From UHGV virus genome UHGV-1693621: a DNA stretch of 18,860 nucleotides. One strand, written 5' to 3'. The DNA is from a virus. Below, piece after piece: positions 393 through 18,860 of this stretch. The notes beneath the pieces were generated by a model. It saw only the letters and a list, made by a program, of their open reading frames with translations, ran no database searches and was not told where the DNA came from. Position 1 is the stretch's first letter. The number at the start of each line of letters is the position of its first letter. Made by a program: the position numbers and the translations under genes.

Positions 393-1051
393 TTTATACG
401 ATAGCAATCAGGCATATCATCCGCATTTATCCAATTGCGAATAGTTTTAGGACTAACTTTAAAATGCTCCGCTGCGTAATCAGGATTATCAAATTTAACG
501 CCCTTTATACATATTGGAATAAATTTTTTAATACCACCAAGTTTTTCAGAAATAGCTTTACGATGTGAAATCGATATAGGTTTATTTTTTCGTGGATGAA
601 CATGTGTTTTATAATATTCATTGCGCCCTTTAACTCGCTTCGTAATAGTTTCATCAGATTGCTTAACGCCTGTTTTTGCCTTTGATATTTTTCGTTTAGC
701 TTCCGCAGTCATTCCTTCTTTTGTTCGCATTGATAACATATTACGATATGAAGGATCTTGCAAATGAACTATAACTGGATTTCCTCTACCACCAATAGCA
801 GCATTATAAGTATCAGTTCTCATAACGAATTCCTCATTGACTAGTAAAGCTTCCATTTTATACATCTCCTCAGATGAGGAGAAAGAATAAAGAATTTCTT
901 TTTTAAAGTTATGAATACCATATTTTTTGATGGATTTTTTGATGTTTACGCCAGAACCCATATAACCATCGTTTTCGTCAAGAGTAGCATGAGCTCCGAT
1001 GTAAATTTTTCCATTGATGATATTAGTAATTTGATATATTAAATATTTCAT
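389..1051 (-). CDS. segD: GIY-YIG homing endonuclease, SegD-like (I-TevI family)
   Basis: N-terminus MKYLIYQITNIINGKIYIGAH matches the GIY-YIG motif and aligns with the I-TevI N-terminus; C-terminal tail resembles the I-TevI HTH DNA-binding end. Start placed at ATG 1051 (GGAG about 11 nt upstream) rather than the track ATG at 1090. Location between genes 23 and 24 fits T4 segD as I recall it. Confidence 0.8.
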   Translation of the reverse strand: MKYLIYQITNIINGKIYIGAHATLDENDGYMGSGVNIKKSIKKYGIHNFKKEILYSFSSSEEMYKMEALLVNEEFVMRTDTYNAAIGGRGNPVIVHLQDPSYRNMLSMRTKEGMTAEAKRKISKAKTGVKQSDETITKRVKGRNEYYKTHVHPRKNKPISISHRKAISEKLGGIKKFIPICIKGVKFDNPDYAAEHFKVSPKTIRNWINADDMPDCYRIK

Positions 1052-15275: not shown

Positions 15276-16240
15276 TGTATTCTTTAGAGGAATTTAATAA
15301 TCAAGCAATAAACGCAGATTTCCAACGTAATAATATGTTTAGCTGCGTTTTTGCAACAACTCCATCAACTAAAAGCTCTTCGTTGATAAGTTCAATTAGC
15401 AACTTTTCTTATAATAACTTGGGCCTAAATTCAGATTGGCTAGGATTAACTCAAGGTGATATTAATCAGGGAATTACCACGCTAATTACAGCTGGCACAC
15501 AAAAACTGATAAGAAAATCAGGGGTTAGTAAATATCTTATTGGTGCCATGAGTCAACGTACAGTTCAAAGTTTATTGGGCTCATTTACAGTTGGTACATA
15601 TTTAATTGACTTCTTTAACATGGCATATAACTCATCTGGATTGATGATATATTCTGTAAAAATGCCAGAGAATAGATTATCCTATGAAACTGACTGGAAC
15701 TATAATTCTCCTAATATTCGTATAACTGGGAGAGAATTAGACCCTTTGGTTATTTCATTCAGAATGGATTCAGAAGCTTGTAACTATCGTGCAATGCAAG
15801 ACTGGGTTAACGCTGTTCAAGACCCAGTAACTGGATTGCGTGCTTTGCCGCAAGATGTCGAGGCAGATATTCAGGTTAATCTTCATTCTCGCAATGGATT
15901 ACCTCATACTGCGGTGATGTTCACCGGATGCATTCCAATATCAGTGAGCGCTCCTGAGTTATCATATGATGGAGATAACCAAATAACTACATTTGATGTT
16001 ACTTTTGCGTACAGAGTGATGCAGGCTGGAGCAGTTGATAGGCAAGCTGCGCTTGAATGGCTTGAATCTGCTGCTATAAATGGTATTCAAAGCGTTCTCG
16101 GAAATAGTGGAGGTGTTACTGGACTATCTAATTCGCTTTCACGACTCAGTAGATTAGGGGGAACTGCAGGAAGCATTTCAAACATTAATACTATGACAGG
16201 AATTGTCAATTCGCAAAGTAAAATATTAGGAGCAATATAA
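15275..16240 (+). CDS. 54: Baseplate tail tube initiator protein gp54
   Basis: 321-aa ORF, synteny and approximate length match T4 gp54; TAATG overlap with gene 48. Confidence 0.9.
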   Translation: MYSLEEFNNQAINADFQRNNMFSCVFATTPSTKSSSLISSISNFSYNNLGLNSDWLGLTQGDINQGITTLITAGTQKLIRKSGVSKYLIGAMSQRTVQSLLGSFTVGTYLIDFFNMAYNSSGLMIYSVKMPENRLSYETDWNYNSPNIRITGRELDPLVISFRMDSEACNYRAMQDWVNAVQDPVTGLRALPQDVEADIQVNLHSRNGLPHTAVMFTGCIPISVSAPELSYDGDNQITTFDVTFAYRVMQAGAVDRQAALEWLESAAINGIQSVLGNSGGVTGLSNSLSRLSRLGGTAGSISNINTMTGIVNSQSKILGAI

Positions 16241-16242
16241 CA

Positions 16243-16274
16243 ATGGGGACCTTTCGGTCCCCATATTTTTATTT
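16243..16274. terminator. Bidirectional rho-independent terminator between gene 54 and the convergent small ORF
   Basis: Hairpin GGGGACC-TTTC-GGTCCCC (16245-16262) with AT extension, followed by ATTTTTATTT on the + strand and a T-rich run on the - strand. Confidence 0.7.
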
Positions 16275-16559
16275 ACGGAATGAAATGAAAGCAGCAACTG
16301 AAGCAACTAAACTGTCTTCAATATAAACTTCAATTTTTACTGGAGCTTCTGACTCAAATTTACCTGTTACTACACCCTGAAAAATACTTTCAGTCTGTTC
16401 TGGCTTTGAAAAATTTTCAGAAGGAAAAATTCCGAACTTTTTATCTGTTCCAAAAATTTTAATAAATTCATCGTAAACTGCTTCATTAAAAGCATTATCA
16501 GCAGGAATAACGCCTTCAACTACAAGTTCTTGACCTAAAAAGCGCAAAGAAGATTTCAT
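16269..16559 (-). CDS. Hypothetical small protein downstream of alt
   Basis: 96-aa ORF with GAGGAA Shine-Dalgarno 6 nt upstream and its own early-type promoter; T4 counterpart not recognised with confidence. Confidence 0.6.
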   Translation of the reverse strand: MKSSLRFLGQELVVEGVIPADNAFNEAVYDEFIKIFGTDKKFGIFPSENFSKPEQTESIFQGVVTGKFESEAPVKIEVYIEDSLVASVAAFISFRK

Positions 16560-16590
16560 TTTGTGTTCCTCATGTTATGTCAGTAAGACT

Positions 16591-16620
16591 ACTATAACAC
16601 AACATAAGGAACTTGTAAAC
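16591..16620 (-). promoter_or_regulatory. Putative sigma70/T4 early-type promoter for the 96-aa ORF
   Basis: On the - strand GTTTACA (-35, complement of 16614-16620), 17-bp spacer, TATAGT (-10, complement of 16591-16596). The -35 overlaps the alt stop codon. Confidence 0.45.
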
Positions 16621-17504
16621 TACATTTTGAACTTTTTAGACATTCCGTTGATGTTAACCAAAGAAGCCAAGATTTGAGAAACTTCGTTTTCCTCTTCTTT
16701 TGATTCTTCTACAAGGAATTGATTAAATCCAGCCATTGGACGAACTTCACCAGTTTCCATTAGATGGTCGCCATCATATACTGATTCTTCTAATTGTTCA
16801 GAAGGAGGAACGATTGTACCTTCGATTAGATACTTGTTATAAGCAGTTTCTTTCATAAAGTACGTACTTACTTTATTAATCTTCAGTAAAATTCCGCGCG
16901 GTAGAATAACTTCAGCTTCTGATGGAAATCCTGATAAATGACCTGGAACGATAACTTTGATTCGCTCAGCTCCTTTAATTACCATACCCACGCTAGTTTC
17001 AGCATCTTCATTAGCATATGTAGAATGACTACCCATATGCATCAAATCTTCTGCATCAACGGAACCTTCTCCTTCACCAGAAAATACTGCGCCGGAATCA
17101 TCTAGAGCCATATAGTTTTTACCATGCTCACCGAAGATATTTGGTTTAAGCGATGTGGATACGAAGTTCTTGAAATAGAACATTTTATTTTCAATGTTAT
17201 GACGCAAAGTTTTAAAGGTAACTTCTTGTCCGCGATAAAGCGTAGTTCCTGGAGGAAGAACTGAACCTTTGGCAAACGCAGAATCTAACGTCTCGATGTG
17301 CTTAATAGCACGTTCCATATATTCTTCACGGGTAGAATCTGGTTTACCTAAAAGGAACGAGTTCATTTCAACATATGAATCTGCGCAATAATCTTCAATT
17401 ACATCAGACTCAGCCTGAGTTAATCCTTTTGGAGTTACTTCGGTGCTTGCGTATTCATATGCCTGAGCGGCAGATTCATTAATCAATTTATAAATGCCAT
17501 TCAT
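16620..17504 (-). CDS. alt: Alt ADP-ribosyltransferase, C-terminal catalytic fragment (frame stays open upstream to 17672; gene appears frameshifted)
   Basis: 294-aa ORF carrying R-S-ExE mono-ADP-ribosyltransferase hallmarks (LYRGQ, STS, SEAEV). The same frame is open for 56 more codons upstream to a TAA at 17673-17675 with no start codon, overlapping the end of the N-terminal ORF. Confidence 0.75.
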   Translation of the reverse strand: MNGIYKLINESAAQAYEYASTEVTPKGLTQAESDVIEDYCADSYVEMNSFLLGKPDSTREEYMERAIKHIETLDSAFAKGSVLPPGTTLYRGQEVTFKTLRHNIENKMFYFKNFVSTSLKPNIFGEHGKNYMALDDSGAVFSGEGEGSVDAEDLMHMGSHSTYANEDAETSVGMVIKGAERIKVIVPGHLSGFPSEAEVILPRGILLKINKVSTYFMKETAYNKYLIEGTIVPPSEQLEESVYDGDHLMETGEVRPMAGFNQFLVEESKEEENEVSQILASLVNINGMSKKFKM

Positions 17505-17653
17505 TACAAATTGAATAATAGCTACCTTTTCATCTGGCGTAGCTTTAGAACCTTTAACTAAATCATTAATAATTTTCTTAATAACATCAAAGCTATTAGA
17601 AATATTAATGTCAGCAAGATCGCTTAAAATTTTATCAGTTTTATAATCAAAGA

Positions 17654-17674
17654 ATTCTTTATTCTTTATTCTTT
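17654..17674. repeat. Perfect tandem heptamer repeat, ATTCTTT x3 (+ strand), at the alt frame break
   Basis: Read directly: copies at 17654-17660, 17661-17667 and 17668-17674, with a degenerate fourth copy (ATTCTTG) at 17679-17685. Confidence 0.9.
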
Positions 17675-18684
17675 AAATATTCTTGAGAACCTTGATATGT
17701 TATATCGCTCTGCAACTTGATAGATGGATCACGTAAACGTGCATGGGCCAATGCAATATGATTTCGGAAACTTTCTAGTTCATAATCGCTAGATTTAAAA
17801 CGAGAAGCACTCCTCATACCACCGATAGCTCCTTTGTTGAAGTTTGAACCAATCTGAATAACGCCAGAGTTCATTGGTCCTTCTGCTTTATATACCGGAA
17901 CTTTAGATTCAAACTCTTGATATTTCTTAGCAGCGAAGCTATCACCCTGAAGTGAAGCATCAACAGTAGAATATTGAGCTTGTGCTGCTAATCGACGACT
18001 GATTTTAGTTTTCTGAATAACAGCTTGGTCCGTGCGCTTATCATTTTCTAAAGCAATAGAAGCAGCAACAGCGACAGCTTTAGGAACAGCATTTCCTGTT
18101 TTAACGTCTACATAAACATCACCGACCTTTGATTCAACTTTTGTGAATAACTCAGTTGAAATAGGAGGTACACCTGGAATGTCTTCTAAATTGGCATTTT
18201 TACGGTAAACCATAATATATGCATATTTCTTATCATAGTCCCAGATTTCCTTTAGGAGAACATATCGACCTGCTCCTTTATTACGTACTAAACGGTCAGC
18301 AATAACTTGCATTTGACGAGCTGCGCCATTTGTTTTACTTTTTAGTACGCGGAATAGGCATGCGTCGATTTTATACTGTTTCATTGTTTGAAGAGCAGTA
18401 TCAAAAACGGCATTAATGACACCAATTGGATTTCCACCCAAGTTTTTAAGTTTAACTAATGATAGTTTCTCGTTGACACCTATCATTACGATATGCATCA
18501 TTTTATCGCCTGGCTTAACGTTTTTATTCGTATCACCACCAGAGGTGTATGTACAAAATCTAAATCCCGGAAGCACGCTTTCTTCGCCGGCTTGAATAGC
18601 AAAAATTTGTGGTATTTTATGCTTAGGATTTAAGTTAACAACCGGCGCCGAAGCGCCGTCAAATAATTCTGTAATAAGTTCCAT
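17659..18684 (-). CDS. alt: Alt ADP-ribosyltransferase, N-terminal fragment ending at a stop inside the heptamer repeat
   Basis: 341-aa ORF with AGGA Shine-Dalgarno upstream, ending ...QEYLKNKE then TAA at 17659-17661. Combined with the downstream open frame it would give about 685 aa, close to the 682 aa I recall for T4 Alt. Confidence 0.75.
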   Translation of the reverse strand: MELITELFDGASAPVVNLNPKHKIPQIFAIQAGEESVLPGFRFCTYTSGGDTNKNVKPGDKMMHIVMIGVNEKLSLVKLKNLGGNPIGVINAVFDTALQTMKQYKIDACLFRVLKSKTNGAARQMQVIADRLVRNKGAGRYVLLKEIWDYDKKYAYIMVYRKNANLEDIPGVPPISTELFTKVESKVGDVYVDVKTGNAVPKAVAVAASIALENDKRTDQAVIQKTKISRRLAAQAQYSTVDASLQGDSFAAKKYQEFESKVPVYKAEGPMNSGVIQIGSNFNKGAIGGMRSASRFKSSDYELESFRNHIALAHARLRDPSIKLQSDITYQGSQEYLKNKE

Positions 18685-18687
18685 GAT

Positions 18688-18858
18688 TTATCCTTGAACG
18701 AACTTGTAAGGCATGTTTGCAATATCTATACAAGACGCAATAATTCCAAGAGATGATTCTACTTTCTGTTTAACGTTTGATGAAACAAATGATGCAAAGT
18801 CAACTTTGTCTTCTATTTCAATATCACCTGTCATTGTAACTACTTCGCCGGTTTCCAT
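18688..18858 (-). CDS. Small hypothetical ORF upstream of alt (may be the 3' end of a longer gene beyond the window edge)
   Basis: Hand-translated 56 codons from ATG 18856-18858 to TAA 18688-18690 (METGEVVTMTGDIEIEDKVDF...YKFVQG); the stop overlaps the alt Shine-Dalgarno region. Only 2 nt of upstream context exist. Confidence 0.3.
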   Translation of the reverse strand: METGEVVTMTGDIEIEDKVDFASFVSSNVKQKVESSLGIIASCIDIANMPYKFVQG

Positions 18859-18860
18859 TA

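Follow-up and report, generated by a model that had tools for sequence, protein, structure and literature searches.

The window analysed here, an 18,860-nt stretch of DNA from UHGV virus genome UHGV-1693621 taken at its full length, comes from a T4-like phage of the genus Tequatrovirus and shares 96-98% identity with SHFML-11, RB32 and many others; no record identical to it was found in the phage collection. We found that a gene for an Alt-type ADP-ribosyltransferase in this window is split into two open reading frames (ORFs) by a third tandem copy of a heptamer that the matching relatives carry twice. This gene is not alt but the Alt paralogue directly downstream of it, known as alt.-2 in phage RB32; it is a family member by descent and now a pseudogene or a split gene. 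These results indicate, with a probability of about 0.8, that in a wild T4-like phage the second gene for an Alt-type ADP-ribosyltransferase has recently undergone a genuine loss-of-function mutation. We regard the three-copy allele as a routine natural null allele of a dispensable accessory gene, produced by a textbook mutational mechanism. It has little significance alone; the reference annotation of T4 already records decay of the paralogue.

A third heptamer copy in the Alt paralogue

The repeat consists of three perfect tandem copies of ATTCTTT on the + strand at 17654-17674, which read AAAGAAT AAAGAAT AAAGAAT on the coding strand. Tandem Repeats Finder reported it with period 7, 3.1 copies and a 100% match (17654-17675), and the repeat 21-mer occurred once in the window and in 0 of 200 dinucleotide-preserving shuffles. 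On the minus strand the site reads ...CAA GAA TAT TTA AAG AAT AAA GAA TAA AGA ATT CTT TGA... The initial annotation had proposed that this triplet splits the gene in two and that a two-copy version would be a continuous ORF of about 685 amino acids (aa) containing LKNKEFFD. The coordinates and the ORF table agree with the split, and removal of one heptamer in silico gave a single 2058-nt ORF of exactly 685 aa, reading ...EYLKNKEFFDYK... The overlap of the N- and C-terminal frames is 14 nt (17659-17672, stop codon counted) and not the 17 nt first given. Alignment of the window gene with the repaired gene showed a single 7-nt insertion and no further lesion, which bears out a 7-bp tandem duplication with a +1 frame change in an Alt-type ADP-ribosyltransferase gene whose relatives are two-copy. 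One uninterrupted ORF of ~680-700 codons, typical of Alt-like ADP-ribosyltransferases, is thus absent, and the gene is present as 341 + 294 aa. As a side observation, the last heptamer copy together with the next 5 bases forms a perfect 12-bp palindrome, AAAGAATTCTTT (17649-17660), with an EcoRI site at its centre. The 14-mer doublet AAAGAATAAAGAAT recurs at 882-895 (+), on the opposite strand relative to the alt paralogue, which is probably a coincidence in an AT-rich genome.

Copy number in relatives was examined with a 151-bp query centred on the repeat, which matched 402 records in the phage collection. Two heptamer copies were present in every one of them (402/402). The top identity was 95.4% (144/151), which is what perfectly matching flanks with a single 7-nt gap give for a three-copy query, and the flanks around the site were otherwise identical in 98 records. 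Three- or four-copy records would rank higher than 144/151, and since no record did, the collection holds none. No one-copy variant was found in the phage collection either (best identity of a one-copy query, 137/144), and the exact three-copy pattern (27 nt) gave zero matches in IMG/VR, JGI metagenome contigs and GTDB genomes. The two-copy form was therefore upheld as the intact ancestral form by the 402 two-copy relatives and the whole repaired ORF, and a check for relatives combining an intact gene with three copies found none among the 402, which favours a real mutation. The suggestion of a slippage-prone polymorphic site was not borne out, because 0/402 sequenced phages deviate from two copies. 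A phase-variable contingency locus was likewise rejected: only three copies are present here, all 402 relatives have two, and there are no one-, three- or four-copy records.

The third copy was found beyond the window itself, but only by exact-protein look-up. This look-up placed the 341-aa and 294-aa ORFs on 4 contigs, of which 3 were read (Table 1) and the fourth is 50-200 kb. All three contigs read were three-copy and 100% identical to the window over an overlap of up to 8.2 kb, and the three-copy form is restricted to one strain. The agreement of three differently named and built assemblies makes a single-assembly artefact unlikely. The scaffold_2 contig (ERZ28650664; L004/L007) measures 215,140 bp, compared with 163-171 kb for related complete genomes, and may be oversized because it includes a chimeric join or a duplication from terminal redundancy or a concatemer.

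The doublet TAAAGAATAAAGAAT is a 15-nt perfect tandem repeat, the longest in the repaired gene, and the inserted unit is an exact copy of this adjacent pre-existing repeat. Such a copy is the pattern expected of slipped-strand mispairing. Frameshifts of this (Streisinger) type were classically described in the rII and lysozyme genes of T4; the lesion in the window is of the same kind, with a second example (a +8 duplication) in this gene of other wild phages, and is a natural metagenome allele rather than a laboratory mutant. The ancestral gene would already have carried the 15-nt repeat, and slipped-strand mispairing during replication would have added the third 7-nt unit. Translation now terminates at the TAA that follows codon 341, within an ordered stretch of helices, and the catalytic C3-like domain lies in the +1 frame behind a sole start codon without a ribosome-binding site, so that this domain is most probably not made. 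The loss would be tolerated if, as it appears, the paralogue is dispensable, with the true alt intact alongside and the paralogue recurrently lost in T-even phages.

The age of the lesion was estimated from substitutions relative to RB32. The ratio of synonymous to nonsynonymous changes was 18:4 upstream and 20:3 downstream of the break, and window-specific changes downstream of the break were 10:1. Nearly all downstream changes being synonymous, the catalytic half has been under purifying selection for almost all of the divergence, and the frameshift is recent.

Several observations weigh against a genuine and recent loss of a dispensable gene. The third copy is known from assemblies, and an error confined to one library, or an allele that is mixed or in the minority in the population, keeps a small probability; the three assemblies, identical over their overlap, may share sample or reads and hence may not be independent. 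The exact repaired 685-aa protein was absent from a collection of 15 billion proteins, and no immediate two-copy ancestor of this strain was thus found. The synonymous pattern downstream of the break also fits continued selection on a C-terminal fragment that is still expressed. By tblastn, 20 of 20 sampled cultured-isolate records carried the paralogue intact and in one piece; most phages thus seem to keep the paralogue, and losing it may be costly. The first of these points bears on a sequencing or assembly artefact, in which the true phage is two-copy and the third heptamer comes from a read or assembly error. In favour of such an error, the window is a metagenome contig, no isolate genome is three-copy and the IMG/VR, JGI and GTDB scans were empty too. 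However, an ENA NODE contig, an ENA scaffold and a Logan contig are all three-copy, and the contig name of the window gives ~97x coverage. Lesions of this type do occur in these phages, since a similar tandem duplication, of +8, was seen in this gene on 16 contigs that come from several samples. Neither short reads nor assemblers are known for clean 7-bp tandem duplications as a typical error. We therefore consider an artefact very unlikely, and a real mutation remains the preferred explanation.

Identity of the broken gene and fate of its two halves

The initial annotation had called the split gene alt. The repaired 685-aa protein was 98.8% identical to RB32 alt.-2, which is annotated as "similar to alt", and only ~41% identical to T4 Alt. 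On the coding strand of RB32, gene 30 is followed by alt.1, alt (697 aa), alt.-2 (685 aa) and alt.-3 (96 aa), with gene 54 next after alt.-3 on the other strand, and the order alt, paralogue, alt.-3, gene 54 is common to the window strain and RB32. Identity and synteny thus assign the broken gene to the paralogue, which corrects the annotation. An orthologue of T4 alt was ruled out by the same figures (41% versus 98.8% identity) and by a position downstream of alt rather than of alt.1 and gene 30. The paralogue is named "Alt-like RNA polymerase ADP-ribosyltransferase" in T2, SHFML-11, RB51 and hundreds of other phages, and a pair of Alt-like paralogues that are 43% identical has been described in SHFML-11 and 6phi13 (2026, PMC13600099). 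The proteins of RB32, T2, SHFML-11 and RB51 (685 aa) share position, length and the N-terminal and C3-like domains with the repaired gene, whereas the window has the third AAAGAAT and the split into 341 + 294 aa. T4 Alt (gpAlt, 682 aa), a packaged NAD+:arginine ADP-ribosyltransferase, has the same two-part architecture and the R / S-T-S / E-x-E motif, and its first nine residues, MELITELFD, are identical to those of the window paralogue. Over the full length, however, identity is ~41% and the central region is divergent, as for a paralogue and not an orthologue.

The true alt of this strain is intact. A 56-aa ORF at 18688..18858, 3 nt upstream of the paralogue ATG, is the C-terminus of the true alt and is identical to the alt tail on the 215-kb scaffold of the same strain (L004), where alt is intact, 697 aa long and has both domains. 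Since alt is intact in the same strain, classical Alt function and activity are not predicted to be lost. For the paralogue's own targets, packaging or activity, nothing was found in the literature searched.

The catalytic part of the paralogue lies wholly in the downstream frame. The C-terminal ADPrib_exo_Tox domain (PF03496) was detected on the repaired protein (E 7e-20, residues 416-620) and in full on the 294-aa ORF (E 9e-21, residues 25-230). The R / S-T-S / E-x-E motif is intact in this frame as YRGQ, FVSTSL and SEAEVILP, and R482, S507, S509, E587 and E589 were invariant across 26 homologues. The only start codon in the frame is ATG 17504, which gives the 294-aa ORF (16620..17504, -). 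The ORF table and the PF03496 match thus agree with the initial proposal that the R-S-ExE domain could be made only from this ATG. For the N-terminal region our local Pfam copy gave no match; the precomputed annotation alone assigned PF26846 (Tevenvirinae_ADPRT) to the 341-aa product and its homologues.

The structural setting of the break was judged from an AlphaFold2 model of P0002, an intact protein 99% identical to the repaired one (mean pLDDT 74.6). The model begins with an alpha/beta region (residues 1 to ~225) at the N-terminus, continues with helices predicted with confidence (~230-470) and then has a strand-rich catalytic core (~470-625). A Foldseek search with it retrieved the C3-like toxins Vis, C3bot, Certhrax and CDTa with probability 1.0 over ~240 aligned columns. 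These toxins were found by fold search only, and a PDB sequence search with the repaired protein returned no match at E <= 0.01. The 341-aa fragment takes in the alpha/beta domain at the N-terminus and some of the helical region in the centre. In the model the position of the stop, after residue 341, is between helix 328-338 and helix 340-355, and M392, the residue encoded by ATG 17504, lies inside helix 381-414. These positions indicate that an ordered region is cut and not a linker.

Signals for separate expression of the catalytic half were searched for around ATG 17504, which is located 155 nt past the TAA stop. No GGAG-like Shine-Dalgarno motif was found within 15 nt of this ATG, the upstream sequence being ...gctattattcaatttgta-ATG. 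No late promoter motif TATAAATA occurred in 16200-18860, and sigma-70-like matches were weak and at background level (13 found against 9.1 +/- 3.0 expected). Judged from these signals, the catalytic half would not be appreciably expressed and the allele would be a functional null. The 341-aa fragment, which keeps the Alt-like MELITELFD N-terminus, might still be made.

These data also bear on a functional split, in which the 341-aa module would still be packaged in the capsid, while translation from ATG 17504 inside the cell would yield the 294-aa catalytic domain as a free protein. The 294-aa ORF includes the entire ADPrib_exo_Tox match, and the part of the model from M392 onwards (part of helix 381-414, two more helices and the strand-rich core) is about the size of a C3 exoenzyme. 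Substitutions in this ORF are nearly all synonymous, and the N-terminal ORF retains the start that it has in common with Alt. Nevertheless, ATG 17504 has no Shine-Dalgarno-like sequence and lies too far beyond the stop (155 nt) for translational coupling to be possible, no promoter was detected for the 294-aa ORF, and both the break and M392 fall in confidently predicted helices rather than in linkers. The arrangement is confined to one strain, and other split alleles are broken at codons 54, 152 and 257, as expected of random knockouts and not of a selected architecture. A working two-part enzyme is thus highly improbable, and simple inactivation accounts better for the split.

Just as improbable is a leaky allele in which ribosomes regain the frame at the repeat and some full-length enzyme is still made. 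Two routes can be drawn. In the first, peptidyl-tRNA-Glu would make a +7 hop from the GAA before the TAA to an identical GAA 7 nt further on, which would restore the exact wild-type protein. In the second, tRNA-Lys would slip +1 from AAA to AAG, giving ...LKNKNKEFFD... The site GAA-TAA-A-GAA-TTC does offer matched take-off and landing codons with a stop right after take-off, AAA-G lets tRNA-Lys re-pair in the +1 frame within the 14-nt overlap, and the C-terminal half has not decayed. T4 gene 60 uses long-range bypassing, and ribosomes in E. coli have been reported to hop a short way past stop codons with an efficiency of ~1% or less; recoding yield at a site like this one is expected to be low. 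The GAA-TAA-A-GAA arrangement is, however, an automatic by-product of the duplication, the AAA-G site has no rare codon, and the lack of decay is equally explained by recency. The three-copy site is absent from all 402 relatives, so there is no conserved signal, and the fold of a 101-nt RNA (-12 kcal/mol, z = -0.42 against shuffles) showed no extra stability. A programmed frameshift or bypass site, as in T4 gene 60 or prfB, was rejected for its lack of conservation in the 402 relatives and of a stimulatory RNA structure. As regards local pairing, each heptamer copy is able to pair with the downstream TTCTTT, and the predicted RNA hairpin uses the palindrome AAAGAATTCTTT.

Recurrent loss of the paralogue

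Inactivation of this paralogue is not confined to the window. Of the paralogue, T4 keeps only codons 1-116, which form alt.-1 and alt.-2; ~1.7 kb beyond them has been deleted. The T4 GenBank note describes alt.-1/alt.-2 as a duplicated first part of alt with a stop codon introduced, and both are listed among paralogous duplications of alt (Nolan et al. 2006, PMC1524935). The T4 remnant thus represents the same paralogue, likewise inactivated, at the same locus. The lesions differ: T4 combines a -1 in the A5 run at codon 54 with the ~1.7-kb deletion, whereas the window has a single +7 at codon ~340 and is otherwise intact. The window allele is an earlier stage of decay than that of T4, reached by an independent lesion. 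About 100 of the 503 records matching the region cover <80% of the query, as a T4-type remnant would give, a figure that reflects coverage only.

A homologue search with the repaired protein, from which truncated cluster representatives on long contigs were taken, revealed three other wild split alleles, each with a single lesion and each with an intact alt upstream (Table 1). From its presence on 16 contigs across several samples, the lineage with the +8-broken paralogue persists and spreads. In L015, the codon-54 lesion and its linked flanking single-nucleotide polymorphisms are the same as at the T4 alt.-1/alt.-2 boundary (L002 5105-5451). By this shared pattern, L015 resembles what the T4 gene would have been before the deletion that reduced it to a 116-codon remnant, and it documents an intermediate step in the origin of alt.-1/alt.-2. 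We infer that the paralogue is dispensable in the window phage as well, from the intact alt and from recurrent loss elsewhere.

Two further proteins were noted. P0025 (628 aa, 166-kb contig) has a true-Alt-type start (GDKMMHIVPFTLTAKGSIAKLKGLGPSPINYINSVFTVAMQTM) followed by paralogue sequence, a pattern suggestive of exchange between alt and the paralogue by recombination or gene conversion. P0019 (335 aa, 61.6-kb contig) starts only at residue 351, shortly after the heptamer site, and its phage may have another lesion near the same place.

The second Alt-type enzyme of T-even phages is thus repeatedly knocked out in the wild and retained in most cultured isolates, and this pattern could guide work on the role of the uncharacterised paralogue and on host selection against it. 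It is conceivable, though we think it unlikely, that loss of the paralogue is positively selected in natural hosts and not merely tolerated, for example if the packaged enzyme triggers, or is targeted by, an anti-phage defence. On such an adaptive reading, equally doubtful at present, the +7, the +8, the codon-152 -1 and the codon-54 -1 would be escape mutations and the T4 deletion their end point. Less likely still than adaptive loss, GAA-TAA-A-GAA hopping might make the window allele a leaky knock-down instead of a null.

Neighbouring genes and coordinates

The coordinates of the split gene, its neighbours and the related alleles are collected in Table 1. The gene after the paralogue, alt.-3, is preceded by a strong match to an early-type promoter at 16619-16591; this is a consensus match only, from which function is inferred. 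Given this putative promoter of its own, if functional, a polar effect of the premature stop on alt.-3 would be unlikely. In T4, the mutations by which the phage escapes the CmdTAC defence system extend the alt.-3 protein at its C-terminus, to 110 or 117 aa (PMC11618068).

Table 1 Features of the split Alt paralogue, its neighbours in the window and related alleles on other contigs
Feature	Location or source	Strand	Details
Triple heptamer	17654..17674	-	2 copies in relatives; extra 7 nt gives a +1 frame shift
N-terminal fragment ORF, Alt paralogue	17659..18684	-	341 aa; stop TAA 17661-17659; ends ...EYLKNKE-stop
Downstream frame, Alt paralogue	16620..17672	-	codons 342-685 of the intact form; open from 17672
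True alt, 3' end	18688..18860	-	last 56 codons + stop; runs off the window; ends ...PYKFVQG (IASCIDIANMPYKFVQG)
Putative promoter of sigma-70 / T4-early-like type	16591..16619	-	TTTACA-17-TG-TATAGT; 10/12 consensus positions, with TG
alt.-3	16269..16559	-	96 aa, DUF5498 (PF17602, E 1e-64); intact, wild-type length
Three-copy contig	ENA ERZ652399 NODE_98_length_18860_cov_96.59		the window itself; coverage ~97x by contig name
Three-copy contig	ENA ERZ28650664 VATT16-1_SAMN05826552 scaffold_2		215 kb
Three-copy contig	Logan SRR8090880 contig 1938		2.3 kb
Split allele, +8 tandem duplication (AGTTTGAA)	L009:2183-4248, L010-L012; ENA GAIO21-1 SAMN11098313, SAMN11097723, SAMN11098380, plus ERZ27233377		codon 257; 273 + 415 aa; 16 contigs, several samples
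Split allele, one G lost in GATAAGAAA	L013:2531-4587, L014; ENA ZHAN23-2_SAMN33693236; Logan SRR24139221		codon 152; 165 + 528 aa
Split allele, -1 in A5 run	L015:2819-4875; ENA ERZ28665598, YOKO23-1_SAMN32384007 scaffold_183		codon 54; gene full-length

Two minor observations concern the window at large. A bidirectional terminator-like hairpin lies at 16243-16264, between alt.-3 and gene 54. Alignments to the best-matching phage genomes fall into two pieces that together account for only 95-96% of the 18.86 kb, so that in the closest relatives ~0.8 kb of the window is either variable or missing.

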